A stretch of DNA of 64,000 bases from a virus (Duplodnaviria > Caudoviricetes): positions 1-64,000 of the IMG/VR virus record IMGVR_UViG_2765235997_000001. One strand, 5' to 3'. Position numbers and translations under genes: made by a program. Under the pieces are notes generated by a model. The model ran no database searches and was not told the origin of the DNA. It saw only the letters and a program-made list of their open reading frames with translations. The first letter of the stretch is position 1, and each line of letters begins with the position of its first letter. Of this stretch, positions 4,455-40,741 are shown piece by piece.

Positions 4455-4480
4455 CAGCCGGTCGGGAGCACCCTGGACGT

Positions 4481-4690: not shown

Positions 4691-4693
4691 AAA

Positions 4694-4724
4694 CGCCCTC
4701 CCCCAGCCGAGCCGAGGGAGGGCG
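4694..4724. terminator. bidirectional hairpin terminator
   Basis: CGCCCTCCC...GGGAGGGCG between convergent genes. Confidence 0.55.
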
Positions 4725-4735
4725 CGTGCAGCAGG

Positions 4736-14562: not shown

Positions 14563-16800
14563 TCATGTCCTCCTGTCGAGGAAGACGTCCTCCCACGTGG
14601 CGAACGTGCCCAGCAGGTCGCCCCAGGTAGCGAACTCGGTCAGGATGTCCTGCCACGTTCGGCCCGCAGATCCGTTCACACCGACAGTGGTGGGCATGTC
14701 GACCTCGGTCAGCGGCAGTGCCCACTCCCGCCAAGGCTCCATCGCCGGGCCGCCAACCCTGCCTTCTGTGGGCTGCCCGACGGACACGTACATGTCGTCG
14801 ACGCCCATGCCTGGGGCTGCCTGCCACAGCAGGGTGCGCCCTGACCCCAACAGCGTGTGGAGTGCCTTCCGTTCGTCGTCGGAGCGGGTCCACACGACGA
14901 GGTCGCCCTCCAGGCCGCCCATCACATCGGAGAGGACGACAGGGTTCTTCCTCCCAGCGATCCGGAACACGCCGCGTTCCACCGGCCGCTGCCAGTTCGG
15001 GGCCGACTTCACCATCACAACGGTGTTCCGCTGAGGAGCGGACGGGTCCTTCAGCCACGCCAAGTTGATGTCGGCGTGAGGAACCGTCACTGTCCCTGAC
15101 AGGCGGGTCGCTGTGCCCCCCGTCACCGGGTCGACAAGCTCAACCCGGTAGTACACCGGCGCCAGCAGCGGGGCCTCCGCATCCTCAATCACCATCAGGT
15201 CCGAGGTCACTGAGACTGTGCCGTCCAGCAAGCCGGACGGGCCACGCACCAGAGTCCGGGCCCCGTCAGCAGTCACCCGGTACACCCGAATCAGGTCCCC
15301 GATGTCCAGCTCCCGCAAGGTAACGGTGACGGACGCCGTTGCGGCCTGCGGCACCGCAGTGATCAGAGGTAGGGCCTGCCACAGGGCAACCCGGTCCAGG
15401 TTGACGACGCTGCTGGTTGACGTCGCGGCCAACGTCAGTTCCACCGCAGCCTGCGTGGCCGCGGCCGGCGCAGTCTGGTCGGTGGACAGCAGCCACCACC
15501 CCGGTCCTGGCACAGCCGCCGCACTCGTCGTGGTAAGCCCCAGATCCGTATCGGCAGCGTCGTACCAGCGGATCCCTCGCGTCACAGTCCATCCGCCGGC
15601 GGTGACCGACTCACCGAACTGGAGCCGGAACCCGAGGCCCCCAGTCCCCGCCGGCAGCGGGAACTTCGCGGATCGGATCGTCGACGCCGTTGCCGTGCTC
15701 GACGACACGGTCAGGGAGTAGCTGCCGTCGAGAGCAACAGCACCCCACGGAGTCGAGCGGGCAATCGTTGCGATTCCGGTGGTCTTCGTCCAGCCTGCGA
15801 CACCGCCCTCGAACGAGGCGTCGGCATAGGGCAGAACCGATCCGGCCTGCATGGCTGGCGCAGCCGTGACAACGGCCTGCTCCACGCGCAGAACTTGTGC
15901 CGCTGTGGCGCTGTCCATTCCGGCGGCAAGGCGGCAGGTGACTGCGCCGACGGGCGCTACTGCCGAGGCGCGCTGCCGGTGGTAGCCCGTGCTTGCGGGT
16001 GCGAGTGTTGACCTGGTTGTCGACACCAGGCTGCTGGCCGCATCGTAAAACCGCAGCTCAATCCATGCAGTCGAACCCGTGGTGGGGGGTGCCAGGTACG
16101 CGTAGCCGAGGTACTCCACCCCTTCGGTTACGGCAGGGTTCTCCACGGATACTGCCGACGTGGTACCCGATCCCGTGGCGGTGACGGTGAGCACATGGGC
16201 GCCGGCCCAGTACCAGTCGACCGGCCACGCCACCATTGGGGCCTGTCGGCCCACGGTCGTGTTCGTGCCCGCAGTCCACGACGAGGTGTCGATTTCCGGG
16301 GTCTCGGTCGCGAACGAGAACAGGTTCCCGGTGGTCCGGATCGGGGCGCCCAGGTACACGTTCTCCCAGTAGTGGGAAACAGCCGACCCGGCTGCGTTGG
16401 ACGACAGGACAACCCGCACCCGGGCCGCACCTGCGGGGGCGACGCCTGCCACACCAACTCGGTGCCACGAAGACGACGCTGATGCTGTGGTCAGGGACCA
16501 GAGCACCGATCCGACCGGAGTGTAGGTCGCGTCGAGCCACTCCAAGCCGATCCGTTCGGCCTCTGTCGATGACGAGGTGTCCGCGAAAACCTGGTAGGTC
16601 TGACCGGCGGTCACCGGGTACCCGGTGACCGTTTCGGCCTGCGTTTCACCTGCCGCAGTCGATTTGACGGAGAGGCTCTTCGCTCCGTTGCGACCACCCG
16701 TGCCAGAGAGGAGGGTGCAGTTGAGCCGCACCCTCCACCCGGTGAACGTAGGATCCATCGACTCTGTAGCAGCCGACAGCATGTTCCCGGGGATCGGCAT
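14563..16800 (-). CDS. distal tail (Dit)-like protein with repeated carbohydrate-binding-type modules
   Basis: Immediately after the tape measure gene; three GN/GS...W...WYDA...AP.GA repeats. Confidence 0.7.
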   Translation of the reverse strand: MPIPGNMLSAATESMDPTFTGWRVRLNCTLLSGTGGRNGAKSLSVKSTAAGETQAETVTGYPVTAGQTYQVFADTSSSTEAERIGLEWLDATYTPVGSVLWSLTTASASSSWHRVGVAGVAPAGAARVRVVLSSNAAGSAVSHYWENVYLGAPIRTTGNLFSFATETPEIDTSSWTAGTNTTVGRQAPMVAWPVDWYWAGAHVLTVTATGSGTTSAVSVENPAVTEGVEYLGYAYLAPPTTGSTAWIELRFYDAASSLVSTTRSTLAPASTGYHRQRASAVAPVGAVTCRLAAGMDSATAAQVLRVEQAVVTAAPAMQAGSVLPYADASFEGGVAGWTKTTGIATIARSTPWGAVALDGSYSLTVSSSTATASTIRSAKFPLPAGTGGLGFRLQFGESVTAGGWTVTRGIRWYDAADTDLGLTTTSAAAVPGPGWWLLSTDQTAPAAATQAAVELTLAATSTSSVVNLDRVALWQALPLITAVPQAATASVTVTLRELDIGDLIRVYRVTADGARTLVRGPSGLLDGTVSVTSDLMVIEDAEAPLLAPVYYRVELVDPVTGGTATRLSGTVTVPHADINLAWLKDPSAPQRNTVVMVKSAPNWQRPVERGVFRIAGRKNPVVLSDVMGGLEGDLVVWTRSDDERKALHTLLGSGRTLLWQAAPGMGVDDMYVSVGQPTEGRVGGPAMEPWREWALPLTEVDMPTTVGVNGSAGRTWQDILTEFATWGDLLGTFATWEDVFLDRRT

Positions 16801-19800
16801 TATGGCCTCCTCCCTGCGCGCAGTGTCTGCGTCAGCTCTCCGAAGCGCCCGTCCACCACCTGGGCGGCCTCTCCCCGCACCCGGCCGAGGAACTCGCCCG
16901 AGTCGAGGTACAGGTCGCCTTCGAACCGGGACGGACCACCGGCAGTACCGCGGCTGAGCGCATTGGCCTGCTGGGTGGTGAACACCGGCTCGGGCCGGCC
17001 GGTCCCGTTGTAGGCCAAGTTGAGGCCGGGCTGGAGGTAGCCGCCCTGGTCGTAGGTGCCCTTGTAGGCGTACTGGTGCGTGAACAGGTTGTCCTTGTAG
17101 GAGCGGGCCCGGGAGCCGATGACGACACCGTCGCCGCCGCGGCTCTCGACGTTGACGCCGTTGATCGTGCCCGCGGTGTGGCCCACACCAGCGTTGGTGA
17201 TGCCGATCATGTACGGGGACTTGCCGCCGAGCTGCCACCCTGGCGGGGCGGTCTTCCCGGAGAAGCTGCCGGTGGCCCACCTCCTGTGCGGCTTCTGGCC
17301 TCGGATGACGGACTCGATGGCAGAGACCAGCCCGCTGCAGTCCCACGACGGGTTGCCGTTGCCGCCCCACTGGTACGGCAGTCCGTGCTGGGTCCGCGCC
17401 CACTTGAGTCCAGCCTTGAATCCTCCGCCACCGATCCCGGCAGCTTCCATCTTGCCGTCGGCCTTGCCGCCGAAGTCGAGAATGCTGCTGATCATCTTCT
17501 TCGGGACGCCGGAAACCATGTCCCGATACAAGGACTTCGACCCGGCAATCTTGGCCAGCAGCGGCTTGACGACCTTGTTCAGCCCAGCCTGCGCACTCCC
17601 CTTGATCCCGTCCTTCAGCCAGGACACACCAGTCTTCGCCAGGTCGACGGTCTTGCCCGCCGCCTTCCCGACCCAGTCGAAGATCCCGCCCTTCGCGAAC
17701 CCCTGATAGGGGGAAAGGGGCTTGCCCTGCATCGCGGCCTGGTTGACCGCATGCAGACGGGCCCGCTCGTAGGGGTTCTTCATCGCTTCCGACACGTACA
17801 CGCCCTCGCCGCGACGCATCGGCACGAGCTGGTCATCGCCCTGCCGGTAGGTCGACCGGCCGGGCAGGATTCCGCCGCGGGCAAAGCCAGTGAACTTGTC
17901 CAGCTTCGGGGCTCCGAAAGCTCCGGCCACCGTGTTCCAGACGCCGCGGATGCCCTTGTTGTAGACCTGGTCGATGATGAACGTCACCGGCTTCTTCGCG
18001 ATCCCGGCAAGCTTCGACCACTGCTCGTCGATGTAGTTCTTCGTGGTGCGGAAGGAGTCGCCAATAGCCCTGAGCCCCTTCTTGATCAGTTCGAACTGGG
18101 GCTTCAACGCTGTGTTCCACAGCCACTTTCCCCTGTCGCCGATCCACCCGAAGACCGGGTGGATGACGTTCTTCCACAGAGACCGGGCACCTTCGCCGAC
18201 AGCCTTCATGTCAGCCTTAACTGCGCCGAACGCAGGCTTGACCGCGTTGTTCCACAGCCATCTCGCCTTGTCACCGATCCACCCGAACACGGGGCTGAGG
18301 ACGTTCTTCCACAGCCAGGTGGCGTCCTTCGCGATCTGCTTGAACGCAGGCCCGATCGCGTTCTTCCATAGCCACCCGGCAATGGCGCCGAGCACCTTGA
18401 TCGCGGCAACAATCGGCAGGATCACTGCCACAACAACGATCGTGAACAGCACCTTCGCCGCGGTCCAGATGAACTTGAACACCGGGCCGAGCACGTTGCT
18501 CCACAACCATGTCGCCCACCGGCCGATGGTCTGCAGCCCCGCCCAGATCGCCGAGAACACAGGCTTGAGAACGTTGTTCCACGCCCACACGGCCGCGGTC
18601 TGAATGCCCGACCAGGCGGCGTTGACGATGTTCCGGAACGTCTCGAAGTTTTTGTACGCGTAGACGACGGCGGCGACCAGTGCCACGATCGCAATGATGA
18701 TCAGGGTGATGGGGTTCGCGGCCAGGACCAGGTTGAACGCGATCATCGCCAAGGTCCACAACTTCGTCGCGATCCACACCGCGTAGAACAGCTGGATCAG
18801 CCACGGCAGCTCGCGGGCAATCTCCGCGATAGCGCTAGCCACAGCACCCAGGGCTTTCAGGACCGGGCCGGACAGCGGGGACACGGCCTTTGCCATCTGG
18901 TAGAAGGCGCTGCTGATGTCACCGACTGCCTTCGCCAGCACCGGGCCCATCCGGGACGAGTAGGCAAGGAACCCCTCGAACTTCTCGCTGCCCTTAAGGC
19001 TGGTGCCCCAAGTTGCGAAGCGGCCTGTGATCTCCTGCATCCGGTGGGAGATCGAGTCCATGTGTGGCAGGAACGCCTGGACGATGCCGCCCATCCCCTT
19101 GAAGATCCGTCCGAAGGACGCGCCCAGGCCGACGATCGCGGGCTCCACAGAGCCCGCCAGGTCCGCCTTGAACCCGTGCCACCACGGGGACTTGAAGCCG
19201 GCCGACACCCGGTCCTGCAGCTCCCCGATCGCGCGAGCAGCAGCAAGAACGAACGGTGTCAGGCCGGGCAGGCTGTTCTTCAACCCGATTAGCGCCCGGG
19301 TGAAGAGCGGCATCACCTGCGGCTGCAACGACTTCGACCACGAGGTGAATGCCGTCCGCAGCGAGGTGAACGCGTTGAGCGTGTCCCTCGCCGCCGGCGT
19401 CAGCTTCGCCAGCTCGGCCTGGTACTTGGCCTGCGCGACGGCAGCCTGATCCACGCCCCCGGCCGCAGACTGCACGGCGGAGGCAACCTGACGCTGAGCC
19501 GACGCCACCGACTCGGCAGCCGACTGCTGAGCGGCGGCAAGCGATTCCTGGGCGCGCTGAACCGACCGCGCACCGTCCGCCTGCGTGGTGGCGACGTTGC
19601 GCTGCGACTCGGCGACCTTCTCCTGTGCCTCCGCAAGATCCTGCTGCGACCGGATGTTCTGGCGAGCCGCTTCGTCGCGTGCTGTCGCCAGCGCTTTTCC
19701 CTGGTCTGCGACTTCCTTTTCGGCGGCGGCGATACGCTCCTGGGCGGCCCGCACCGTGTCTGAACCCTCGACGCCGGCCCGGTCAGCTTTCCGCTTCTCG

Positions 19801-21236
19801 GCGGACAGGTTCTTCGTCTCAGCCTGCTGCTCCTTGAGCCGCTGCGTCGCCTGGTCGTAGGCGAGCTGGGCGCGCTGCTGCTCCAGCAATGTCGCCTTCG
19901 ACCCGGCGGCGGATACCGACTGGAGCCGGGCGCGGGCCTCCTGCACGTCAAGGACCGCGTCGCGTTCCGACAGTTGGGCGTTCGCCACCCGGTCGGCAAG
20001 CTCGGTGAGCTGCTGGGCGGCATCCCGGCGGGCCTGCGTCAGATCCTGCTGGGCCTGCCGGGCAGTGCGCTGAGCATCAGCCAACGACTCCTCGGCCCGC
20101 GCCACCGACTCAGCCGAGTCCCGCTGACGGTCCGCAGCCTGCTGCACCGCATCCGCCAGCGACTGCTGGGCCTGGGTCACCTGCTGGGCTGCCCGCCGGT
20201 TCGCCTCCGACGCCGACCGGACAGCATCCTCGACACCCTGCTGCGCCTGCGCAATCTGCCGGGCCGCGTTCCGGTGCGCGGACGCCAGAGCCTGCTGGGC
20301 CCCAGCCATCTGCAACGCCTTCGACGCACCCTGACCGGACGCCTGGGCCCCCTTCATCGTGGCGGCCGACGCCGCGTCCTGGGCGGCTTTCTGTGCCTGG
20401 AGGACACCGGCAATGCTGATGATCGCCGGGACTGCTACGGCGGCCAGGGCACCGACACCGACGCCAGCGGCGACCGCGGCAGAACCAATCGCACCGATGC
20501 CCGCGGCGAGCACGGGGATCGCAGGGATGAGGGCCAAGCCGCCGATCGCGACCGCCAGGTGCAGAATCGCTCCCACGGCGCCGGTGGTGTTCACGTTGAC
20601 CCTGGCCGTTTTGCCGTCGACAGCAGCGATCTGCGCGCGTACAGCGGTCAGCTCGGCGATAGCCCGCGCCGTGTCGGCCCGCACCTGCACGTTCGGGTGC
20701 CTCGCCCCGAGCCGGGTCAGCTCGGCCTCGATCAGTTTGATCTCGGCCTTCGCGGCGCCCGCGTCGATATCAATCCCGATGCGCTTGTTCGCGAGGGTCT
20801 CCATGCGGACCCGCAGCGCCTGCAGATCAGCGTCCGCCTCGGACGTGTCCGCATCGATCGTGATCTTCGGGAGGGAGCGGAATGCGGCCTCCAGCCGGGT
20901 CTTCAACGCCCGGGAGAAGGCCCCGCCCGTCTCGTCGCCCTGCCGGACCGCCGACGCACGCGCCGCCGCACCACCCTGGGTGACACCCTGCCGCAGGGAC
21001 CCACGGATCTCCGCAGTGATGCGGGACGCGATCTGCTGACCGATCTGCTGACCGATCCGGAGACCGATGTCGCCGACCTGCCCCTGCATCGCCGGGCCGA
21101 ACGACCGGCCCGCCGCATTACCCGCGTCCTGGCCGGCCCGCGTCGCGGCGGGTACCAGGGCCCGCTGGAGCTGCTGGTAGATGCCCCGGGTGTTCGGTAT
21201 GACGTCGACTTCGACCGAGCCCACGCTGATTGCCAC
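16800..21236 (-). CDS. tape measure protein with C-terminal NlpC/P60-like peptidase
   Basis: 1478 aa, Ala/Gln coiled coils, periodic Trp repeats; YQWGG..WDCSG...GHT. Confidence 0.92.
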   Translation of the reverse strand: MAISVGSVEVDVIPNTRGIYQQLQRALVPAATRAGQDAGNAAGRSFGPAMQGQVGDIGLRIGQQIGQQIASRITAEIRGSLRQGVTQGGAAARASAVRQGDETGGAFSRALKTRLEAAFRSLPKITIDADTSEADADLQALRVRMETLANKRIGIDIDAGAAKAEIKLIEAELTRLGARHPNVQVRADTARAIAELTAVRAQIAAVDGKTARVNVNTTGAVGAILHLAVAIGGLALIPAIPVLAAGIGAIGSAAVAAGVGVGALAAVAVPAIISIAGVLQAQKAAQDAASAATMKGAQASGQGASKALQMAGAQQALASAHRNAARQIAQAQQGVEDAVRSASEANRRAAQQVTQAQQSLADAVQQAADRQRDSAESVARAEESLADAQRTARQAQQDLTQARRDAAQQLTELADRVANAQLSERDAVLDVQEARARLQSVSAAGSKATLLEQQRAQLAYDQATQRLKEQQAETKNLSAEKRKADRAGVEGSDTVRAAQERIAAAEKEVADQGKALATARDEAARQNIRSQQDLAEAQEKVAESQRNVATTQADGARSVQRAQESLAAAQQSAAESVASAQRQVASAVQSAAGGVDQAAVAQAKYQAELAKLTPAARDTLNAFTSLRTAFTSWSKSLQPQVMPLFTRALIGLKNSLPGLTPFVLAAARAIGELQDRVSAGFKSPWWHGFKADLAGSVEPAIVGLGASFGRIFKGMGGIVQAFLPHMDSISHRMQEITGRFATWGTSLKGSEKFEGFLAYSSRMGPVLAKAVGDISSAFYQMAKAVSPLSGPVLKALGAVASAIAEIARELPWLIQLFYAVWIATKLWTLAMIAFNLVLAANPITLIIIAIVALVAAVVYAYKNFETFRNIVNAAWSGIQTAAVWAWNNVLKPVFSAIWAGLQTIGRWATWLWSNVLGPVFKFIWTAAKVLFTIVVVAVILPIVAAIKVLGAIAGWLWKNAIGPAFKQIAKDATWLWKNVLSPVFGWIGDKARWLWNNAVKPAFGAVKADMKAVGEGARSLWKNVIHPVFGWIGDRGKWLWNTALKPQFELIKKGLRAIGDSFRTTKNYIDEQWSKLAGIAKKPVTFIIDQVYNKGIRGVWNTVAGAFGAPKLDKFTGFARGGILPGRSTYRQGDDQLVPMRRGEGVYVSEAMKNPYERARLHAVNQAAMQGKPLSPYQGFAKGGIFDWVGKAAGKTVDLAKTGVSWLKDGIKGSAQAGLNKVVKPLLAKIAGSKSLYRDMVSGVPKKMISSILDFGGKADGKMEAAGIGGGGFKAGLKWARTQHGLPYQWGGNGNPSWDCSGLVSAIESVIRGQKPHRRWATGSFSGKTAPPGWQLGGKSPYMIGITNAGVGHTAGTINGVNVESRGGDGVVIGSRARSYKDNLFTHQYAYKGTYDQGGYLQPGLNLAYNGTGRPEPVFTTQQANALSRGTAGGPSRFEGDLYLDSGEFLGRVRGEAAQVVDGRFGELTQTLRAGRRP

Positions 21237-22186: not shown

Positions 22187-22774
22187 TCAGGAGCCCGTGT
22201 ACTCAGGGGTCACGGGGATCTTGTCGACGTGGTAGACCGTGTTACCGGCCGCGTCCGGGTACGTAGTGATCGTCCACTCGAAGCCCGACATCTCGTCCTG
22301 CTTGAACGTCACGTCGGACCGGTCGTTGATCTCGCCCTCAGGGATGTAAAACCCCTTGTAGGCGCCGCCGTCGATCACCAAAAACCAGAACGCGCGACGG
22401 TCCGGCACAGGGCTGGCCGTGTCGGCGTACTTCGTGATGCCGTCCACGTCCGGCTCGAACGCCGCCGCGGCCAACCGGTTCTGGAGGCTCATGACGGAGA
22501 CCCGGTTCGTCTCCCACACGGTCAGCCCGAATGTGCGGATCGACTGGGTGATCTGCGTGCGGAACGGCGACGTGAGACCCCACGGGGTGAACGTCTGCGA
22601 GTCCTCGTCGAACCCGTAGGTCAGGCCGTCATCACTGATGGCCCCCAGCGGCTCCCACGGAGCCACCGGCTGGTCGAGCGGCGAAGCGAGAGCAGAGGTG
22701 CCCACAGGCGCCACCCATCCCCCGCCATTTGCACCAACGAGCGCCAGGTCAGCGGCGCGGGTGATCAGGACCAT
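22187..22774 (-). CDS. major tail (tube) protein
   Basis: LGAISDDG motif, size, position; C-terminus ...PEYTGS. Confidence 0.85.
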   Translation of the reverse strand: MVLITRAADLALVGANGGGWVAPVGTSALASPLDQPVAPWEPLGAISDDGLTYGFDEDSQTFTPWGLTSPFRTQITQSIRTFGLTVWETNRVSVMSLQNRLAAAAFEPDVDGITKYADTASPVPDRRAFWFLVIDGGAYKGFYIPEGEINDRSDVTFKQDEMSGFEWTITTYPDAAGNTVYHVDKIPVTPEYTGS

Positions 22775-22845
22775 GATGAGTCTCCAGACATGGAAGAGCC
22801 CGCGCACGGGCGGGACAGAAAGGGCACGGCGCGGGCCCGGGGCGG

Positions 22846-23238
22846 TCAGGAGACCGGGTGAAAGAAGATCTCGTAGGTGCCGCCGACACGGCGGAGACCG
22901 ACGTTCTCGTAGGGGCGGATAGCCGGAAGGGTCAGGCAGCTGACACGGCCGATCACGGCGGTGGCGCTGGTGCTTCCCCGCACTGTGCGGGTCAGCCAGT
23001 TGTGCACCTCGATGGCCAGCGCGAACGCCCCGGCCCGGGAGGTGGCGTAGATGTTCGTGTCGACAAGGGCGCGGGCCAGCCGCAGCCCGTCCTCACCCCC
23101 GCCGGGGACCTGCTCGAACTGGATCGTCGGCAGCTCGGCAAGGAGGTTGTTGTCGAGCTCGTCACGGACCACAGCGGCGGGCCACACCGGGGTGGCTCTG
23201 CCGATCAGCTCCGCCTCGATGTCGAGAAGCGCCGTCAC
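22846..23238 (-). CDS. tail terminator
   Basis: 130 aa, immediately upstream of the major tail gene. Confidence 0.7.
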   Translation of the reverse strand: MTALLDIEAELIGRATPVWPAAVVRDELDNNLLAELPTIQFEQVPGGGEDGLRLARALVDTNIYATSRAGAFALAIEVHNWLTRTVRGSTSATAVIGRVSCLTLPAIRPYENVGLRRVGGTYEIFFHPVS

Positions 23239-23414
23239 GGAACCTCCTCAGCGAACTCACGGCCGTCGAGCGAAGCGTGCACGTAGACCCAAACGACCAG
23301 CCCACCGACCTCAACCGGGACAGCCTCCGGGCCACAGACGCACGACGGTTCCTCGCCGCCCGTCTCGTGCTCGATGAGATCGTCGAGCGGGGCGACATGC
23401 GCAGTCGCGGCCAT
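23235..23414 (-). CDS. small hypothetical protein (CVCGP...HASLDGRE)
   Basis: Overlapping start/stop with both neighbours. Confidence 0.6.
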   Translation of the reverse strand: MAATAHVAPLDDLIEHETGGEEPSCVCGPEAVPVEVGGLVVWVYVHASLDGREFAEEVP

Positions 23415-23746
23415 CAGCGACCACCGCCAGCCTGAGCAGCCCGCAGCAGCACATGGTGGGCCGGGACCCGCTCGGTGCCGTACTCCACCCACCGGGCGTA
23501 GTACGCCGTGTTCGTCACCGTCGCCGTCGCCCGGTCCTTGCGGCGGCCACCACGAGTCGTGGTCGTCACCGTGAACGACGACTTGTACCGGCCGGGGTGC
23601 GGATCCGACGGACCGCCGACCGGGGCGATAGCGATGGCCGCATCCTCGATTGCCTCGGCGCGACCCAGCATGTCCGCCTGGATCATCCGAGACCTGAGCA
23701 GCTGCCCGACACCCTTCTTGGACATCTTGAACTTCGCGGGCATCAT
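23414..23746 (-). CDS. HK97 gp10-like neck/tail completion protein
   Basis: APV...GRYKSS...YARWVEYGT motif. Confidence 0.8.
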   Translation of the reverse strand: MMPAKFKMSKKGVGQLLRSRMIQADMLGRAEAIEDAAIAIAPVGGPSDPHPGRYKSSFTVTTTTRGGRRKDRATATVTNTAYYARWVEYGTERVPAHHVLLRAAQAGGGR

Positions 23747-23774
23747 GACCACCTCGACTCACACAGGGGGCAGC

Positions 23775-24095
23775 ATGGACGTCAAAGGCGTCATGGGCAG
23801 CATCACCTTCGACGGCGAATGGATCACCATCACGAAGAAGGAAGCCGGCCAGCAGCAGCGCCAGTTCCGCATCCGGGCCGCCGACATCACCGGCACCCGG
23901 CTCAAGCCAGCCACCCGGTTGTTCCACGGCTACCTACAGTTCGTGCTCCCCGGCAGCGCACCCGCCACCGAAGACAAAGGCCTCATGGCCGGCGGGCGAC
24001 CGCCCCAATCCGACCCGCACAGCCTGTCCATCCGCCACGGCGCCAACGACGCTGCGGCGAAGCTGATGGCCGCAGTCGAGCAGGCCCGGACCTAA
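23775..24095 (+). CDS. DUF4429-like (PH-like) protein, antisense to the structural operon
   Basis: VKGVMGSITFDGEWITI...KPATRLFHGYLQF; GGGGG RBS. Confidence 0.7.
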   Translation: MDVKGVMGSITFDGEWITITKKEAGQQQRQFRIRAADITGTRLKPATRLFHGYLQFVLPGSAPATEDKGLMAGGRPPQSDPHSLSIRHGANDAAAKLMAAVEQART

Positions 24096-24454
24096 CCGGT
24101 CACCCGGTCCGCAGCGAACTGCACAGGACCAGCTGTGCCGGTGAACGGGGACTTCCCCCAGTCGCCTGGGAAACCGGTGACCTCGCACGTCTCGCCACGA
24201 ATCCGAACCCGGTCCGTGGTGCGGACCGAACTCCCCGGCGGGGCGTACACCGTGTACCCGACAATCACCGTGTCCCGGGCCTGCTGGTCGTCCCCGCCAA
24301 CCGTCGGATTCTCCGCACGCGGAGCCACCACGCAGCCCGGAAGGTCAAACGACTCATCCGGGCCCGGCAGCGGCTGACCGCGAGGATCACGACCTGGCGA
24401 GGTGCCGGTACGCAGAATGCGTACCGTCTCCCCATACGGGTACGGGGCAGGCAT
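24092..24454 (-). CDS. head-tail stopper/closure protein
   Basis: DPRG, TVYAP, DRVRIRG..EVTG motifs; position. Confidence 0.75.
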   Translation of the reverse strand: MPAPYPYGETVRILRTGTSPGRDPRGQPLPGPDESFDLPGCVVAPRAENPTVGGDDQQARDTVIVGYTVYAPPGSSVRTTDRVRIRGETCEVTGFPGDWGKSPFTGTAGPVQFAADRVTG

Positions 24455-24864
24455 CACGACCACCCCGGCTCGAAGACGTCATCGCCGAAGAAGGTGTCGT
24501 CGATCGGCCACGTCGGAGACGGATCCGCAGTCGAAGGGGTCGGGTCGACGGTGAACGCACCACCGCGGCCCGCGAGACTCTTCAGCGCAGCCTTATCCGC
24601 CTTCGTCAGATACAGCCCCCCGCTTCCGCTGGGCCGCTGCACCGACATCGGGCCGATCGTCTCGTAAGACACCTGCTGCGGATTGACGTAGGCCCGACCA
24701 GCGACCGACAAGACGACAGCAGTCGCCTGATCGGGCAGCGGCTTCACCACCGACTCGGCCAGCGAAACCGCCTGCTGGATCAGCAGGTCAGCCCGGTCGC
24801 CGTCGATCTCCGGCAACCCCAGGTACATGCCCAGCTGCTCGGCAGTCGGGGATACGAATGCCAC
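24454..24864 (-). CDS. head-tail adaptor
   Basis: RAYVNP...ETIGP...GLYLT motif. Confidence 0.8.
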   Translation of the reverse strand: MAFVSPTAEQLGMYLGLPEIDGDRADLLIQQAVSLAESVVKPLPDQATAVVLSVAGRAYVNPQQVSYETIGPMSVQRPSGSGGLYLTKADKAALKSLAGRGGAFTVDPTPSTADPSPTWPIDDTFFGDDVFEPGWS

Positions 24865-24873
24865 GGTGACCTC

Positions 24874-25905
24874 CTAGCGGGCCAGGCCCTCGATCGCGGT
24901 GCACCACTCCGCCAACTCGACGGACGGGTTCAGCTCGGCGGATCGGGCCTTCGCCCGCTTGCTGGCAAGCCGGTACTCCGGAGCGGTGAGGAGCTTCCGC
25001 AGCACCGCCTCGTAACCGTCCAGGTCTTCGCGGTCCACGAAAACCCCAGCCTCACCCAGAGACTCGGTCAGCCCCGGGGTTGGGTGAGCCACGACGGGGA
25101 TACCGCTAGCCAACGCCTCGACGCCGGCCCGCCCCCAAGACTCGTAGGAGCTGGGCATCAGCAGCACCTTCGTGCGGCCATACACCTGCTCCCGCATGTC
25201 CTCGCCCCGGACATGCTCGACGATCTCGACGTTCGGCAGCTCAGGGAGGATCTGCTCCCCGTAGGCGCCCTTCACGGCCAGGAACTGCTGGTCCGGCATC
25301 CGGCGAGCTAGTGCAGCGAGCACCTTGCCGCCCTTCTCCGGGTTGCAGTTGACCAGAGTGATCGCCTTGCCGGGCTTCGTCGCATAGTCCTCGGCGAACA
25401 CGGGAGGGCGCACGATCAGCTCGGACGCTGGCCGAACCGACTTCGGGAACTCGGCAAAGAACATCTCCGCCTCCGCCTGCATCCACTGGCTGTTGTAGAC
25501 CGCCAAAGCAGTCCCACCAGCAGCAGCGTCCCGAAAAGTCGGGCGGTGCGTGTTGTGACACACCACCACCAGCGGCACCCCATACCCACGGGCCAAGGAC
25601 GCCGTCGACGGCACCGTCTCCAGGTGCGACACCAGGACGTTCGCCCGGCGCACCGCCGTCGGGAAGTCCAAGCGGGACTCCAGCGGCACCACCTTGATGC
25701 CCCGGTACTCGTACTCCTCGTGGGCCTTCCCGTACCGGGACAGCCACACGGACACATCGTGGCCACGCTCCACCAACGGGCGAAGCATGCTGACGAGCAT
25801 GTGCTCGGCCCCCGCATTGTGCTCCGGAGGCATCGCGTGCACCCTGGCCACGATCTTCAGCGGCTTGGCGGTCCCGCCCGGCGCGGAGACCGGGACCGCA
25901 GCCAT
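24874..25905 (-). CDS. glycosyltransferase, family 4 (GT-B)
   Basis: AGAE, RGHDV, KG, PSSYESWGRAGVEA (EX7E), GIPVVA. Confidence 0.9.
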   Translation of the reverse strand: MAAVPVSAPGGTAKPLKIVARVHAMPPEHNAGAEHMLVSMLRPLVERGHDVSVWLSRYGKAHEEYEYRGIKVVPLESRLDFPTAVRRANVLVSHLETVPSTASLARGYGVPLVVVCHNTHRPTFRDAAAGGTALAVYNSQWMQAEAEMFFAEFPKSVRPASELIVRPPVFAEDYATKPGKAITLVNCNPEKGGKVLAALARRMPDQQFLAVKGAYGEQILPELPNVEIVEHVRGEDMREQVYGRTKVLLMPSSYESWGRAGVEALASGIPVVAHPTPGLTESLGEAGVFVDREDLDGYEAVLRKLLTAPEYRLASKRAKARSAELNPSVELAEWCTAIEGLAR

Positions 25906-26861
25906 CAGCTACCGCTCGGGGTGCCGGTGTACTTCACGAACGCGTCCGCGTCACCCTGCACGTAGCCGTAGTACGCCTCCGCCAGGAGGAGAACCAAATT
26001 CTCTTGGAACGCGCTGTGGACACCACCCTCCTCGTCGACGTAGGTCGCCTCCTTGGAGATCCGCACGGTGATGTCCATGCCCACCCCGTAGGCGGCCTGC
26101 GACCAGTCGCCGCCGATCGCACGCAGACCCGTGTCCGAAGACGCGGACTGCCGGCGCTGCTTGCCCGACACACTGCGCGAGTAGGCGAGCGGCTCACCGA
26201 TCAGGGTGCCCGCCGACGCCATCTGCGTCCCCGGGACCGTCGTGTCGACCAGGATCGGCCGGCCCGTGGTGTCCGTCGCCAGCAGCAGCGACGGCTTCAG
26301 CCGGTGGTCGGCGACGGTACCGGTGTAGTCCCAGTCCTCGTCGATGACCTCGGCCATGCCGTTGACGAAGTCCGCCCAGATACCGCCCTGCGCCTGCGTG
26401 GCCGTACCCAGCGCCACCGCATTGCTGGTCATGGCGAGGTAGTCGGTAAAGGGGCCGGTGGCACCCTTCATCGTCTTGCCGTGGATCGCCGCGTGGTCGA
26501 AAGCGCGGGCGAACGCCGTCGGGAGATCCGTCTGGAGCTGAGTCCACAGCCCGCCGGAGTTGGTCATGACGACCTCTTCGGCGACCGGGATGAGAACGGC
26601 CAACTTTTTCGCGGTCATCTGCTTCACGCCGACGGACGAGGTCGACAGGGGCTTCCGCGCCGCCTGCCCCACCCAGTCAGCGGTCGGAACGTCCATCGGG
26701 ATCGGCACCGACGTCGTCGCGTCCAGAGCCAGCGGCGCCTGACGCGCCAGCGCCATCACCGCCGACTGCTCGACGGACTTCTCGAAGATGGGCCCGGCCA
26801 GAGTCCTCGGCAGAAGCGCATCGTTGACATCAGAAATCTTCAGTGGGGCGGTGACCGCCAT
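25905..26861 (-). CDS. major capsid protein (HK97 fold)
   Basis: KLAVLIPV, GDWSQ, FQENLVLL motifs; C-terminus ...YTGTPSGS. Confidence 0.9.
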   Translation of the reverse strand: MAVTAPLKISDVNDALLPRTLAGPIFEKSVEQSAVMALARQAPLALDATTSVPIPMDVPTADWVGQAARKPLSTSSVGVKQMTAKKLAVLIPVAEEVVMTNSGGLWTQLQTDLPTAFARAFDHAAIHGKTMKGATGPFTDYLAMTSNAVALGTATQAQGGIWADFVNGMAEVIDEDWDYTGTVADHRLKPSLLLATDTTGRPILVDTTVPGTQMASAGTLIGEPLAYSRSVSGKQRRQSASSDTGLRAIGGDWSQAAYGVGMDITVRISKEATYVDEEGGVHSAFQENLVLLLAEAYYGYVQGDADAFVKYTGTPSGS

Positions 26862-26881: not shown

Positions 26882-27529
26882 CTACTTGAGCTGCGGCTTC
26901 AGCCAGCCGGCGAACTCATCGCCGGGTGCGGGGGGCCTGCTCTTGTTGGCACCGGACGCCTGAGTGCGGTCCGGTGCGGGACGCCGCGGGCCCTCCTGGG
27001 GCTGGGCCTTCGCCCAGTGCGGCTTGCGCTCCAACAGCGCCTGAAGGTCGGCCTCGATGGCCGCCTCGTCGATGTCGCCATCACCGTCGATGTACGAGTC
27101 GAGATTGAGCGCGCCGACCGCGTCCTCGGGATCCGTGAACGCTGGCCGATCCTCGGAGGCAGCCCCGGCCAGGGCCTGCACCCGAGCCTTCGCCAGGCGC
27201 TCGCGCGTCTTGGTGATCTGCTCGTTGGCCCGGGTCAGCTGGTCGTTGAGGCGCTCGGTGTCGCTCTTCTCCGAGTCCTTGATGCGCTGGAGCTCAGCAG
27301 CCGCCGGCTCCAGCTCCTTCAGACGCTTCCGGAGGTTCTGGGCCTCCGAGTTCGCCTTCCGGATCTTCGCCTCGGCCTGCTTCCGGTCGAACGGCTTGTC
27401 CTCGGTCTCCGCCTCCTGGGCGTCGTTCGTGGACTCGGTGCTGCTCTCCTCGGTCGCCGTCTCCTCGACGGTCCCCTCGGTGCCGGTCTCGGCCTGCTGC
27501 TGCTCGGTGCTCTCGGTCTCTTCAGGCAT
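26882..27529 (-). CDS. capsid scaffold protein
   Basis: Acidic N-terminus, coiled coil, KPHWA; upstream of the capsid gene. Confidence 0.85.
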   Translation of the reverse strand: MPEETESTEQQQAETGTEGTVEETATEESSTESTNDAQEAETEDKPFDRKQAEAKIRKANSEAQNLRKRLKELEPAAAELQRIKDSEKSDTERLNDQLTRANEQITKTRERLAKARVQALAGAASEDRPAFTDPEDAVGALNLDSYIDGDGDIDEAAIEADLQALLERKPHWAKAQPQEGPRRPAPDRTQASGANKSRPPAPGDEFAGWLKPQLK

Positions 27530-27606
27530 GACGAATCGGCCCTCCAGGGGCTGTCGAAATGAGAAAGGCCGCCACCAGGGCGACCACGTTGCGAAGTGAG
27601 CGCGGA

Positions 27607-28362
27607 CTAGCCGTGCTCGGCAATCGCACGCCGGAACCGGCGCAACTGATCGCCAGGAAACGGGGCGGCGTACTCGCGGTACAACCGGTCCCACTCCTGC
27701 GCATGGGCGGACAGCTCAAACCGCTGCCCGCGAAACACCGGGATCACGCCGCAGTTGCAGCCGTCGTGAGCCCGGAAGTCGGCGGTGTCCTGCGCGTAGA
27801 CCATGCCGCGGGCCGCCAGGAGCCGGCAGAACGCGCAAGCACCCAACGCAGCGGCGCGGGCGTAGCCGACAGCCATACGATCCTGCTGGACCGCGGCCTG
27901 CACAGTGCCCCTCCCCTGGTCCGTAACCAGCTTCTGGGCAACCCCCTCCGCCTTCTTCTCCGCCGCGTCCAACCGGACCTCCAACGGGGCCCGCTGGGCG
28001 GCGGTCGTCTTCGGGTCCTCCGAGTCGCGGGGCCACAAGTCCTTCGTGGCCCACCGCAGACTGTTGTCGACCTGCTCATCCGGCGGCGGATCCAGCAACG
28101 GCACCGTGAACCGGCCCGTCACCCGGGCAGCAACACGCTCCGCCTCGTAGAAATCCGCAGCCGCCGAAGCCGAGGCAGTGCCGTACTCGCCAACCAGGGC
28201 GCGCACAGCCTCAATCCAGTCCGGGACCGTCTCCTGCATCCGCGACGGAATGATCAGGCGGCGGAGCTTGCGCACATCCCGAACCAGCAGCCGTGACAAA
28301 CCGCGCTGCACCTGCCGCTGCCGCCGGGCACCCGCACTGTCATCCGAGACCAACGTCGCCAT
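27607..28362 (-). CDS. minor capsid/head morphogenesis protein (MuF/VG15-like)
   Basis: CAFCRLLAARG..Y...HDGCNC motif after portal. Confidence 0.8.
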   Translation of the reverse strand: MATLVSDDSAGARRQRQVQRGLSRLLVRDVRKLRRLIIPSRMQETVPDWIEAVRALVGEYGTASASAAADFYEAERVAARVTGRFTVPLLDPPPDEQVDNSLRWATKDLWPRDSEDPKTTAAQRAPLEVRLDAAEKKAEGVAQKLVTDQGRGTVQAAVQQDRMAVGYARAAALGACAFCRLLAARGMVYAQDTADFRAHDGCNCGVIPVFRGQRFELSAHAQEWDRLYREYAAPFPGDQLRRFRRAIAEHG

Positions 28363-29785
28363 CAACGACCTCCGGAGGCCGTGCCGCATCATCGGCCTCG
28401 CCCAGCGCCGCCAAACGGTCCAAGACCGCAGTGCCACGAGCGCGCTGCCGGTCCGCACGAATGCGCTGACGCTGGCCCTCGGTGAACCCAGCCATCTCCA
28501 ACGCCACATCAGAGTCAGCGGGGATGATGTTCGCCTGCACCAGCTTGACCGTGGCGTCCGCCTGAGCGGCCACCGTCGGCGTCGCCGGATTCCGCCACAC
28601 CGTCTCAATACGACGGGTCCGATCCGGCGGCTCACCATCCCGCACCCACAGAGCGAGACGCATGGCCTCCTCCCAACGGGAACCGAACCGGCGAATCCGA
28701 CGCTCGCTGCGCTTCACGAGCTTCGCCTCGGTGCTGCGGATCGCGTCCGCGCTCGCCGGGTTGTCCGTGGTGTAGCCGAGCATGTGCGGCGGCAGACCGA
28801 ACTGGCTGGACATGATCCGCGCGTACAGGTCGATGATCTTCGTCTGACCGGAAGGATCGTGGGCCGCGAACTGGCCCACCGTCGGAACCGCACCATCCTC
28901 GTCCCGCTCCAACGCAAGGACACGGCCGATGTACGTCTCCCACGCCGACTTCGCGTTGCCCTCAGCATCCTGGAACGCCGACTCGCTGGCGCCCAAGATG
29001 TAGCGTTGCGGAGCCCCAAAAAACTCGGCGGCCACCTCAATGCCCATCAGTCGGCGGCAGGCCGCGTCCGTGATGCTCATGACGTCCGGGGTGATCTCGG
29101 ACTTGCCCACGCGGTCAGCCGTTCTCTGCCTGTTCGCCAGCCTGACGATCGGCACCACGCCCAACTTGTGCATGTCCCGGTCGACGACCTCCCAGCCGCC
29201 CGACGGATTCGGCAGCGCCGTCACCGTCTGATCCGGCAGGTACAGGACGATCATCCGCTCATCCGCGCCGGACTCGACCAGCCCGTCCGTCTGGCACTCA
29301 CGCAGCCCCGCAACACCCATGCGAATGCGGGCATCCCACATCAGCGTCATGTCCAACGGTGACTCCACGCTGATCAGCGGCGGGGAGCCGTCGTCATCAC
29401 CAGAGCCGATCGTGACGTACTCGCGCCCATAGATCAGGGCGTCCAGGTGCCCAAGGCTCGACTCGTCGAGGAGATCATTCGCTGTGACGATCTCCTCCAG
29501 CTCCGACGAATCGGAACCGTCACCCCACCGAAACGCTTCGAGATCGAGGCGCTCCTCCAGGGACTCCACGCCCACCCGCGGCCAGCCGATGACCGTGTGC
29601 AAGCCCCTGAGCTGCGGCGGGATGCTGATGCCCAAGTCACGGACCAGCTGCTCACCGTTGAAGTACGCATCCCTCAACTGCAACGTCCAGCGGTCACGCA
29701 GCAAGTCGGCACGCAAAACGTTGATCAACGCCATTTCGTCGTCAGACAGATGCACCAGCGGCAGCTCGGGAATCGAAACGGTCAT
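28340..29785 (-). CDS. portal protein
   Basis: 481 aa after terminase; GKSEI, PQRY, NPASADA. Confidence 0.9.
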   Translation of the reverse strand: MTVSIPELPLVHLSDDEMALINVLRADLLRDRWTLQLRDAYFNGEQLVRDLGISIPPQLRGLHTVIGWPRVGVESLEERLDLEAFRWGDGSDSSELEEIVTANDLLDESSLGHLDALIYGREYVTIGSGDDDGSPPLISVESPLDMTLMWDARIRMGVAGLRECQTDGLVESGADERMIVLYLPDQTVTALPNPSGGWEVVDRDMHKLGVVPIVRLANRQRTADRVGKSEITPDVMSITDAACRRLMGIEVAAEFFGAPQRYILGASESAFQDAEGNAKSAWETYIGRVLALERDEDGAVPTVGQFAAHDPSGQTKIIDLYARIMSSQFGLPPHMLGYTTDNPASADAIRSTEAKLVKRSERRIRRFGSRWEEAMRLALWVRDGEPPDRTRRIETVWRNPATPTVAAQADATVKLVQANIIPADSDVALEMAGFTEGQRQRIRADRQRARGTAVLDRLAALGEADDAARPPEVVDGDVGLG

Positions 29786-31536
29786 CGCAACACCACCACC
29801 CGTCCCTTGCCGCGCGCAGTGGTGCGCTTCTGATTCTTCGGACTGTTCAGGACGGTTCGCCGCAACATCCGGGCCCCGATCATGCAGATCGCAAGGTCGA
29901 TCTTCCGGGCCGACTCACGGTGCTCCTTACCGATCGTGATCCCCCAAGCATTCGTGCGCCGCCGGGCATTGATCACGTGGGTACGCATCACCTTGTGCCC
30001 GTCATGCACCAGCTGCCGCTGCAAGATGTCCTCGCGGGTCCGTTTCACCGCGTCGGTGAACGTCTCCTGGTTTCGCCGGTCACGCATGTCCCACCGGACC
30101 GCGTGCGCCCTCGGACCCGACACCACAGCGCGCAGAAGCAGCTTCTTGCCATAGGACTGGCCCCACCTGTCCAGGAAGGCGTCCCAGTACATCTCGCCGT
30201 CCTCGTCCTGCCCGGAGCCAGGGTCGGCAAAGAACGCCAGCACCTTGAACCGGTGGAACGCGTTCTGCACGACACCGTCGACGTCCTCGCGCGGCACCTG
30301 CCACGGCACGTAGCCCGGCGTGTTCGGTGACGGCCAGTTCGGCGGCTTCTGCCACACGCCCAACGTCGACACCAGACCGTCCGACATGCGGCAAGCAGCT
30401 AGGCCCGTCGCGTCATCCGACTTCGACCCGTCGAAGAACACGACGACCTCGTCACCGTCCGCCAGGCTGAGATCCTCGCGCTTGCAGGCGTCCCACTCGT
30501 AGCGGGCCATCCACGCGTCCTCGGCAGCGTCGATCATGTTGTACCAGAACCGTCGGCTACGGCTCGGCGGGTTACGGGTGTCGAGGATCGACGACTTCAA
30601 CCGCCCAATGTCCAGCCACGTCGAATCCCCGCGCACCGCCCGCAATGTCGGCTCGATCCACGCCTCCGTCAACTTCGCCTCAGGCGGAGCCTCCAGCGAG
30701 TCGTAGAACAGGCCAGTGTCTGCCGCCCGGCCCGCCTCGACGGCCTCGTAGGCGTCCCGGGTCCGCTCGGCCACCGAGTCCTCGCCGGGCTCGAAAGCGT
30801 TCGTGTCCGCCAGCGTCCGGGACTGCCCGTCCGCCGACTTCGTCGCGTTGCGCTCAATGACCGCAGCCATCTCGTGGCCCGAGTTCGACTCCAGCCAGTG
30901 ATGCGTCTCGCCCATCGACGTGAACGTCGGCCGGCCACCCTCCAAGGCCCGCGGAGAGCTCGTGACGGCTTCCATGCGGGCCCGGCCCTTGTCGGCGTAA
31001 ATGATCTCCTTGCCGAGGTCGATCCGGTACTCCTCGATCGCCCGCTTCGTGAAGATCGAGGGGAACAAGGTCATCGTGTTCCGGGTCTGGTCCTGCGACA
31101 CTGCGGCGATCTGGACCCACGCCGCCGGATGCTGCATGCCCAGCGGCTGCCCCAGAGGGACACCCCACTCGTTGCCCTCGTCCGCAACCCTGTCGAACCG
31201 GCACGGGCCAACGAACTCGAACGCGCTCCACGTCGCCTTGACCGGGTCTTTTCCCCAGCCCTTCAGCCTCTGGAGCACCCCGTCCCGCCACAGGAACCGG
31301 TTCGTCACCGGATCCATGGCATACCACCAGAGAGTCAGGCGCGCCTGCTCAGGCGTGTACTGCCAGGGTCGACCGACGTAGTGCTGCAGGTAGGTCTTCG
31401 TCCAGGAGAGGCAGTGCCAGCCGAGGGTGTACTCAGGCAGCAGAAACCTGCCATCCGGGCCGCGCTTCCAGGTGGGCCCCAGGGTGAAAGGTTCGACGAC
31501 GTCGGGGACCTGCTCCTCAACCTCCGGCGATGTCAC
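29782..31536 (-). CDS. terminase large subunit
   Basis: RLKGWGKDP Walker A, ETHHW, FDGSKSDD, KID nuclease motifs. Confidence 0.95.
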   Translation of the reverse strand: MTSPEVEEQVPDVVEPFTLGPTWKRGPDGRFLLPEYTLGWHCLSWTKTYLQHYVGRPWQYTPEQARLTLWWYAMDPVTNRFLWRDGVLQRLKGWGKDPVKATWSAFEFVGPCRFDRVADEGNEWGVPLGQPLGMQHPAAWVQIAAVSQDQTRNTMTLFPSIFTKRAIEEYRIDLGKEIIYADKGRARMEAVTSSPRALEGGRPTFTSMGETHHWLESNSGHEMAAVIERNATKSADGQSRTLADTNAFEPGEDSVAERTRDAYEAVEAGRAADTGLFYDSLEAPPEAKLTEAWIEPTLRAVRGDSTWLDIGRLKSSILDTRNPPSRSRRFWYNMIDAAEDAWMARYEWDACKREDLSLADGDEVVVFFDGSKSDDATGLAACRMSDGLVSTLGVWQKPPNWPSPNTPGYVPWQVPREDVDGVVQNAFHRFKVLAFFADPGSGQDEDGEMYWDAFLDRWGQSYGKKLLLRAVVSGPRAHAVRWDMRDRRNQETFTDAVKRTREDILQRQLVHDGHKVMRTHVINARRRTNAWGITIGKEHRESARKIDLAICMIGARMLRRTVLNSPKNQKRTTARGKGRVVVLR

Positions 31537-31954
31537 GGTACGAATCCAGCGGGCTCACCGACGCCAACTGCGCGCCGGCAGGCTTCTTCCGCTCCAGCTC
31601 CATCCGAGCCCGGCGCCGGTCCCCCTCCGTCGTCAGCAGCGACGACATCACCGAGTTCAACGCCGCGACCAGCTGGCCGTTCGGCCCGCGGTCCGACAGC
31701 ACCACCTGCGACATCACGTGTGCCGCGTACCGAGCCATCGCCCAGTCCGACGGCTCGTAGAACGCCGACTGCCCCGACTCACGCAGGGACAGATACCAGT
31801 CCGCTGCGATCGGGTGCCACAGCGGATCAGGCCCGGGCAGGTCCGGCATCTCCTCCGGCGGACCCGAAGAGGCCTGCACCAGGTCCGGGCCGTCCGGCTT
31901 GTTCCGCCGGCGGCGAGCTTCGGAGCGCTCAGGGATAGGTCCACGAGTGCCCAT
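31517..31954 (-). CDS. terminase small subunit
   Basis: RGPIP..S, WY.SL..SGQ..FY..SDW, TEGDRRR motifs. Confidence 0.85.
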   Translation of the reverse strand: MGTRGPIPERSEARRRRNKPDGPDLVQASSGPPEEMPDLPGPDPLWHPIAADWYLSLRESGQSAFYEPSDWAMARYAAHVMSQVVLSDRGPNGQLVAALNSVMSSLLTTEGDRRRARMELERKKPAGAQLASVSPLDSYRDIAGG

Positions 31955-32099
31955 AACGACCTCCAGGGTCAGAGCACGCCACCAGGGCGCACAGGGCGAG
32001 AGAGAAGACGACCGAGCGCCACCGCCAGGGCGAGGCCGGCCGAGAGGTAGAGCTGCAGGCCAGGGCCTAGGAAACCCGTACACGGGGTCGTGTGCTTTA

Positions 32100-39209: not shown

Positions 39210-40741
<1,532 letters not shown>

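Follow-up and report, generated by a model that had tools for sequence, protein, structure and literature searches.

What does a glycosyltransferase gene do among the head genes of a tailed phage, immediately behind the gene for the major capsid protein? The question is raised by IMGVR_UViG_2765235997_000001, an IMG/VR record of 87,088 bases that is classed as a provirus and represents a Streptomyces prophage, of which the first 64 kb (hereafter the window; G+C content 65-71%) were analysed here. On the minus strand of the window, matches to Pfam and PHROG families outline a siphovirus structural module that runs from the terminase genes through portal, scaffold and capsid to a glycosyltransferase of family GT4 (hereafter GT4), and from there to the connector and tail genes. 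The answer that we consider probable, judging from comparative sequence evidence, is that GT4 O-glycosylates the proteins of capsid and tail tube, both of which end in serine, so that the phage sugar-coats its own virion.

The glycosyltransferase and its junction with the capsid gene

The GT4 protein exceeds the cut-offs of three Pfam glycosyltransferase families, namely Glyco_trans_1_4 (PF13692; 1.1e-13, 52.1 bits, cut-off 27), Glycos_transf_1 (PF00534; 6.5e-13, 49.0 bits, cut-off 26.4) and Glyco_trans_4_4 (PF13579; 1.9e-7, 32.0 bits, cut-off 29.7), and falls slightly below that of a fourth (PF13439; 27.1 bits, cut-off 28.5). When a more specific family was sought, NCBIfam returned only generic, sub-threshold matches and the sequence matches in the PDB were likewise generic. 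An AlphaFold model built on 20 homologues reached a mean predicted local distance difference test (pLDDT) score of 88.7, and its top Foldseek matches were MshA, the glycogen synthase GlgA, PimA and BshA (E 1e-14 to 1e-11, template modelling (TM) score 0.65-0.77). The model thus indicates an intact two-domain GT-B fold, with retaining GT-B enzymes as its best structural matches. Two acidic residues of the donor-binding domain, E255 and E263, stand eight residues apart and form what we take to be the E-x7-E motif; neither varies across the 20 homologues, whose identities are 68-96%, and the enzyme therefore looks active, as far as conservation can indicate. A C-terminal domain of the Glycos_transf_1 type, an N-terminal Rossmann domain and the conserved glutamate pair, which count among the features of the GT4 class of CAZy and Pfam, were all found in this protein.

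The gene lies between the capsid and head-tail adaptor genes and overlaps the former through a TGATG stop/start, exactly as a preliminary description of this DNA had reported. The minus-strand junction reads ...GGTAGCTGATGGCT..., in which the TGA of the capsid gene and the ATG of GT4 have base 25905 in common, an arrangement that likely couples the translation of the two proteins. Among 132 related loci with both genes, in which the GT4 starts were set by a heuristic, the TGATG junction occurs in 95 and an overlap of 1 or 4 nucleotides (nt) in 114, while 8 loci have a spacer of 1-2 nt and 10 a gap of 86-573 nt. On its other side, GT4 is separated from the adaptor gene Ad1 by 9 nt that contain GGAGG. 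From 21 to 33 kb, the coding strand shows no promoter-like site, and so there is none private to GT4.

The position of GT4 behind the capsid gene recurs in relatives of the window phage. Scanning IMG/VR with GT4 yielded 115 related stretches; the 80 best, at 70-96% identity, were retained, and every one of the 45 long virus records tested has the gene. Two further searches were independent of GT4 as bait. With the capsid as bait (named genomes, capsid identity at least 69%), GT4 followed the capsid gene in 58/58 loci, from the hosts Streptomyces, Nonomuraea, Sphaerisporangium, Streptosporangium, Actinomadura, Embleya and Wenjunlia; with the tail tube as bait, it followed the capsid gene in 15/15 loci with upstream context. 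Among the carriers of the capsid-baited loci are the culture-collection strains S. parvus JCM 4069, S. lavendofoliae JCM 4391, S. olivaceus NRRL B-3009 and S. filamentosus JCM 4122. A clade with a tube about 50% identical to that of the window has GT4 behind the capsid gene in 8/8 loci.

Serine at the C-termini of capsid and tail tube

The capsid protein of the window ends in ...KYTGTPSGS and the tail tube in ...PEYTGS, and translation bears out both ends as they had been given in the preliminary description. The matching Gly-Ser pair that it saw in them holds for the Ser and fails for the Gly, as eight residue types (G, A, L, S, N, V, M or T) precede the terminal Ser across capsids and tubes. 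Among the tube homologues listed, with at least 66% identity, the last residue is Ser in 120/120, and the penultimate one is G (94), A (16), L (6), S (2), V (1) or M (1). A terminal Ser is likewise present in 78 of the 79 distinct tube sequences from GT4-bearing virus loci and in 54/55 tubes from the capsid-baited genome loci. Of 80 distinct capsid sequences from GT4-bearing loci, S is the last residue of 74, T of 4 and A of 2 (both of the latter ...SGSA), and the corresponding counts in the 58 capsid-baited genome loci are 49, 7 and 2.

The conservation is concentrated on the last residue. In the tube, the last position has an entropy of 0.10 bit, the lowest of the last ten, with 1.2-1.9 bits at positions -3 to -6 and 1.9-2.2 bits at -8 and -10; in the capsid, the last position is also the least entropic of the last ten, although the trend is weaker (0.45 bit). 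In both capsid and tube, the codon of the terminal Ser is TCC, TCG or AGC, drawn from both Ser codon families, which suggests that selection is on the amino acid. We also considered a constraint from the ribosome-binding site of GT4 as the cause of the conserved capsid tail, and rejected it because the Ser end is kept in the loci where the two genes are 86-573 nt apart, and because the tube has no such neighbour.

The sole non-Ser tube of the GT4 clade belongs to an Actinomadura sp. prophage that occurs in both collections (L147 and L205; the gene ends near 10591 and 11421, respectively). There, a 1-nt indel directly before a preserved ...TCCTGA shifts the frame and adds 17 residues.

Other proteins of the module were compared in the same manner. 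The C-termini of portal, scaffold, adaptor and GT4 are varied. The head closure protein Hc1 ends in Gly in 84/84 cases. For the tail terminator, 71 of 80 distinct sequences close with Ser (...HPVS), and all of the last four positions have low entropy, so that this protein could be a third acceptor or could simply have a conserved tail. The terminal Ser of capsid and tube counts as evidence because its neighbours vary, whereas in Hc1 and the terminator the whole tail is conserved.

To place these counts against a base rate, we used a wider tube family of 150 representatives with at most 50% mutual identity, 112 of them of stand-alone length. The last residue of these 112 is Ser in 27 and Ala in 42, and 4 have a Gly-Ser end. 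Set beside this, the 120/120 of the GT4-linked clade exceeds what chance would give. Of the 150 representatives, 32 exceed 225 residues, most with extra residues beyond the tube domain, and such C-terminal extensions would fit a C-terminus that points outward. One representative, P0122 (237 residues, 51% identical to the window tube), has a C-terminal extension of about 50 residues that is rich in Gly, Ser and Thr, ends in ...STAA and may be a multi-site acceptor.

The nearest relatives with no glycosyltransferase in the structural module, eight in number, served as controls. With capsid end and tube end given in this order, they are L153 (...WTA, ...AEV), L154/L155 (counted as one case; ...DVS, ...ITT), prophages of Nocardioides (L215; ...DAN, ...IAA), Leifsonia (L216; ...AAF, ...LVA) and Mycobacterium (L217; ...AAF, ...LSA), Streptomyces phage Rowa (no glycosyltransferase among 69 features; ...LNA, ...AAA), Streptomyces phage VWB (none within 18.5 kb; ...VLA, ...VTP) and Gordonia phage Gsput1 (none within 18.5 kb; ...SAA, ...PTP). 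A Ser end is thus found in 0/8 of their tubes and 1/8 of their capsids. They were set against seven lineages that carry GT4, namely the main Streptomyces clade, that with the approximately 50% identical tube, Streptosporangiales, Embleya, a lineage with an alternative capsid, L156 and phage TurkishDelight. At the level of these few lineages, which were of our own choosing, the tube ends in Ser in 7/7 with GT4 as against 0/8 without it (Fisher p = 0.00016), and the capsid in 6/6 as against 1/8 (p = 0.005). The check proposed at the outset, whether a C-terminal Gly-Ser co-occurs with the enzyme gene or is equally common in relatives without it, thus speaks for the proposal in the form of the terminal Ser, apart from the single capsid. 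Scans of viral contigs with the tube representatives P0123, P0125 and P0122, aimed at closer outgroups without the enzyme, gave no relative.

In two of the controls (L215, 6989-8206; L216, 7001-8260), the capsid has an insertion of about 90-100 residues that matches a tail-protein PHROG and is probably a surface domain, and the adaptor gene directly follows the capsid gene.

The pairing of GT4 with Ser ends also extends to lineages whose capsids differ from that of the window. Three records (G004, G006 and G038) carry a capsid of another HK97 subtype, only 25% identical to the window capsid, which ends in ...TTAAS; their gene order is capsid, GT4 paralogue, adaptor and second GT4, and their tube ends in ...YTGS. 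The tube-relative group that contains the controls L153 and L154 includes a single GT4 locus, L156, whose enzyme is 49% identical to that of the window and whose tube ends in ...ALS. A further case is Streptomyces phage TurkishDelight (NC_073473), an isolated phage and the only one to match the window GT4 among 50,697 phage records (as two copies of its genome record). Its gp20, annotated as a glycosyltransferase, is a member of that GT4 subfamily (with 39% identity covering 95% of the query) and a 678-residue tandem fusion of two GT4 modules, encoded in a 93.6-kb genome between the capsid (...PGSTS) and the major tail protein (...CVAS). TurkishDelight and the window phage are thus alike in GT4 subfamily, gene position and Ser ends, whereas their capsid and tail proteins are unrelated. 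Since Ser ends track GT4 across lineages with different or unrelated capsids, the pairing is supported beyond one clade. A literature search with few subscription papers in its reach found no paper that mentions TurkishDelight.

Two observations on individual loci are added here. In the variant lineage of L220 (5528-8200), L221 and L222, two GT4 paralogues, 46-56% and 56-77% identical to the window enzyme, stand on either side of the adaptor gene, downstream of the gene for a capsid of another HK97 subtype. In L156, a 4.4-kb IMG/VR contig, about four direct repeats with spacers (166-489) precede GT4, with a repeated peptide in translation; the array has a CRISPR-like look or may be an assembly join, and there is no capsid gene upstream.

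A second sugar cassette and the surrounding genes

The coordinates of the structural module and of a second set of sugar genes are collected in Table 1. The ORF of the tail tube likely starts at the Met at 22774, giving 195 residues, because its homologues have 194-196.

Table 1. Features of the structural module and of the second sugar cassette, in order of transcription (minus strand)
Feature	Position	Strand	Remarks
Collagen-repeat protein	39210-40274	-	Cassette upstream of terminase
GT-A-fold glycosyltransferase, 235 residues	38470-39177	-	phrog_14945 'glycosyltransferase' 2.7e-47
Class I methyltransferase dependent on S-adenosylmethionine (SAM)	37575-38174	-	Pfam Methyltransf_25 6.4e-13
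Small open reading frame (ORF)			Between methyltransferase and SDR genes
Short-chain dehydrogenase/reductase (SDR), nucleotide-sugar epimerase/reductase	36293-37162	-	Pfam Epimerase 2.8e-35; phrog_540 4.3e-47
Small terminase	31517-32083	-	
Large terminase	29782-31536	-	
Portal	28340-29785	-	
VG15/MuF-like protein		-	Between portal and scaffold
Scaffold	26882-27694	-	
Major capsid protein, HK97 type, 318 residues	25905-26861	-	Pfam PF05065 Phage_capsid 1e-22; phrog_10 8e-42
Codons of capsid C-terminal tail YTGTPSGS	25908-25931	-	Terminal Ser codon 25908-25910 (AGC)
TGATG stop/start overlap, capsid/GT4	25903-25907	-	Read directly
GT4-family glycosyltransferase, GT-B fold, 343 residues	24874-25905	-	Pfam; phrog_26352 2e-167 (a PHROG of unknown function)
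Head-tail adaptor Ad1	24454-24864	-	phrog_137 2.1e-12
Head closure Hc1	24092-24463	-	phrog_501 3.6e-22
Tail terminator	22846-23238	-	phrog_123 7.3e-11; end ...HPVS
Tail tube ORF	22187-22807	-	Pfam PF25681 Phage_TTP_17 1.6e-14; phrog_117 1.7e-35
Terminal Ser codon of tube	22190-22192	-	
Chaperones and tape measure	16800-21236	-	

The cassette upstream of the terminase genes, at 36.3-39.2 kb, had been missed in the preliminary description, which had rightly recorded GT4 as a sugar gene. Its SDR protein is nearest to GDP-L-fucose synthase (NCBIfam GDPFucSynFcl, 2.2e-24), with 86.5 bits far under the cut-off of 500. The GT-A protein matches no Pfam family even at E <= 1 and no PDB sequence; its structural model has a pLDDT of 80.3, being confident in one of five models, and the top Foldseek matches are SpsA, the fucosyltransferase WrtF and TarS/TarP at TM scores of 0.5-0.6. 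GT-A and SDR genes are neighbours in 41/42 related loci. When long records were picked through the GT-A gene, GT4 was present in 18/18, whereas long records picked through GT4 contained the GT-A gene in 6/27, one of these matches being weak, which makes 24 of 45 long records with the GT-A gene. The cassette is thus an optional set, and the constant part consists of GT4 and the Ser ends. By analogy with the sets of methyltransferases and glycosyltransferases in the mycobacteriophages Che8 and Corndog, the cassette may lengthen or methylate a virion glycan. It could alternatively glycosylate the adjoining collagen-like protein, or could serve DNA modification, as has been described for GT-A enzymes with epimerases.

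Several other genes of the record were noted. A plus-strand ORF (23508-24095, 195 residues), located within the structural operon of the minus strand and flanked by the genes for head closure and tail terminator, has a DUF4429 domain (2.7e-10) and a high G+C content at third codon positions, and probably represents an inserted accessory gene. Near the left end of the window (3525-5389 and 7093-7749) there are genes for a protein with an ATP-dependent DNA ligase domain, for another whose nuclease domain is of the GmrSD C-terminal type and for a serine resolvase, which may be cargo or flanking host DNA. Further to the right, both on the minus strand, are genes for an FtsK/SpoIIIE-like protein (50635-52638; phrog_24831, 2.6e-91) and a nucleoside 2-deoxyribosyltransferase-like protein (55940-56473), and a C5 DNA methylase is encoded at 72301-73308 of the full record, beyond the window.

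Virion glycosylation weighed against other roles

According to published accounts, the capsid and tail tube of the mycobacteriophages Che8 and Corndog are glycosylated by phage-encoded enzymes, of which Che8 gp110 and Corndog gp38 are essential for virion glycosylation (PMC11256854, PMC11600133, PMC12363180). As read from the genome records, the capsid and tube end in ...KTGS and ...SDGS in Che8, and in ...LVGS and ...KGDS in Corndog, so that these phages resemble the window phage in having glycosyltransferases of their own together with a capsid and tube that are both Ser-ended. In Corndog, moreover, the enzyme genes adjoin the capsid gene in the structural module, and both phages have methyltransferase genes beside the glycosyltransferases, as the window provirus also has a methyltransferase. 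The comparison covers these two of the three phages reported as glycosylated, Myrna being the third. Freeman and colleagues, in Cell Host Microbe in 2023, reportedly found the virion glycans of Che8 (gp108-110) and Corndog (gp35-38) to be O-linked at the C-terminus, and are said to have pointed out putative glycosyltransferases in some Streptomyces phages.

The enzymes themselves are different. Che8 gp108 combines a GT2 domain with a TylF-type methyltransferase and gp110 is GT25-like, whereas the window enzyme is a GT4 of GT-B fold. BLASTP of GT4 and the other window enzymes against Che8 gp107-110 and Corndog gp35-39 gave nothing below E = 0.1, and the alignment by hhalign of the window GT-A profile with gp110 and gp38 had a probability of 0.2%; when TurkishDelight gp18-20 were included in the BLASTP comparison, gp20 was the sole match. 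GT4 is thus not homologous to the mycobacteriophage enzymes and is best seen as an analogue with the same acceptor signature rather than a member of their family. The parallel with mycobacteriophage O-glycosylation drawn in the preliminary description accordingly reaches as far as the Ser-ended capsid and tube and does not include homologous glycosyltransferases. The proposed window system also differs in that a single GT4, coupled to the capsid gene, is its constant part, and in its Streptomyces and Streptosporangiales hosts. No report of a GT4-capsid pairing was found in the literature on Streptomyces phage capsid glycosylation, in a search that mostly excluded subscription papers, and a preprint on the Che8 capsid structure makes no mention of glycans.

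That the fold can accept a protein is shown by GtfA/GtfB, the cytoplasmic GT4 enzymes of GT-B fold that transfer a sugar onto Ser/Thr of folded or nascent serine-rich-repeat adhesins in Gram-positive bacteria. These enzymes require a partner subunit, their target is a series of long Ser-rich repeats and not a single terminal Ser, and they are absent among the sequence and fold matches listed for the window GT4.

Under the proposal of virion glycosylation, the late structural operon would yield GT4 along with the capsid protein, and GT4 would recognise, in the cytoplasm, short flexible tails with a terminal Ser-COOH on the capsid and tube subunits. It would then transfer a sugar from a host nucleotide-sugar onto the Ser at or near the extreme C-terminus, in O-linkage, and the released virion would carry sugars on head and tail. 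An alpha linkage would be expected from family membership, GT4 being a retaining family. Where the second cassette is present, it may extend or methylate the glycan, and this is the weakest step of the scheme.

Several points weigh against this proposal, whose support is comparative. No BLASTP match connects GT4 with the Che8 and Corndog enzymes. The similarity of GT4 is generic and leads to GT4 enzymes that act on small molecules and lipids, and sequence therefore gives no pointer to a protein acceptor. Ser-ended proteins are no rarity in the wider tube family (24%), and since the last residues of Hc1 and the terminator are conserved as well, an invariant last residue is not evidence by itself. 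In nine capsids the end is Thr or ...SGSA, and a frameshift has removed one tube end. Most GT4-bearing loci represent one phage lineage, and the large counts are therefore not independent; the lineage-level test compares seven cases with eight, and among the latter the absence of a glycosyltransferase refers to the structural module, as checked over 18.5 kb for VWB and Gsput1.

Some of these points would also make sense if GT4 were an enzyme of the virion module with another acceptor, such as the tail terminator, a fibre or a polymer of the host envelope late in infection, and if the Ser ends were kept for assembly. The enzymes that come nearest to GT4 in structure have small molecules, lipids or glycans as their substrates, the tail terminator is also Ser-ended, and the Gly of Hc1 demonstrates that an invariant last residue can exist without any link to sugars. 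We nevertheless regard this explanation as unlikely, as it accounts neither for a conserved terminal Ser amid a variable tail, nor for the way in which Ser accompanies GT4 in unrelated families of capsid and tube and is absent from relatives without the enzyme. The temperate nature of the phage, whose record is classed as a provirus, brings in a further role, in which GT4 would act from the prophage on a host surface polymer or receptor as a gene for lysogenic conversion or superinfection exclusion. Phage glycosyltransferases that alter host surface glycans, such as O-antigen and teichoic acid, are well known, and GT4 has a partial Pfam match to 'GT4 in conflict systems' (5.5e-8). Its place inside the late operon, overlapping the capsid stop codon and with no promoter-like site of its own, would be unusual for a conversion gene; TurkishDelight, a phage of virulent type, has GT4 at the same place, and a PADLOC search with GT4 gave no match. 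On balance we find such a role quite improbable.

The least probable of the explanations weighed is that the glycosyltransferases, above all the GT-A enzyme of the second cassette with its epimerase, add sugars to the bases of the phage DNA. As described in a preprint, phage GT-A enzymes, some with neighbouring epimerases, glycosylate hydroxymethylated bases, and TarP is a structural relative (10.1101/2023.12.21.572611). The sugar-hypermodification clusters of that account share the pairing of GT-A and epimerase genes with the window cassette, whose GT-A protein matches phrog_2675 'DNA methyltransferase' and resembles TarS/TarP by fold, and the nucleoside 2-deoxyribosyltransferase-like gene and the C5 DNA methylase of the record would also suit DNA modification. 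The GT4 considered here, however, lies in the head-tail module among head and connector genes and not among genes of DNA metabolism, the Ser ends would be left unexplained, and neither a TET/JBP dioxygenase (PF12851) nor a thymidylate-synthase-like hydroxymethylase (PF00303) was matched at E <= 0.1 in the whole 87,088-base record.

Glycosylation of the virion by GT4 therefore remains the explanation that we favour, and its consequences would reach beyond this provirus. To our knowledge, glycosylation of phage particles has been shown only for a few mycobacteriophages, where it alters how antibodies view the particle. If the proposal is true, a different enzyme family would do the same job in very common prophages of Streptomyces and Streptosporangiales (115 IMG/VR stretches and 58 species genomes), virion glycosylation would be a widespread, convergent trait of actinobacterial phages and not a mycobacterial curiosity, and one terminal residue would predict which phage particles are sugar-coated. 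More tentatively, the C-terminal Ser may be a convergent tag for self-glycosylation, in which unrelated enzymes, of GT-A type in the mycobacteriophages and the capsid-coupled GT-B-fold GT4 in phages of Streptomyces and Streptosporangiales, would each have come to read a free C-terminus together with Ser on head as well as tail subunits, a wider reading that we hold to be possible but doubtful. A sugar coat would also raise the question of its use to a phage of the soil, which at no time encounters an immune system; if the reading as a convergent tag were true, the coat in soil would serve something other than evasion of antibodies, for example hiding the capsid and tube from bacterial sensors or proteases.

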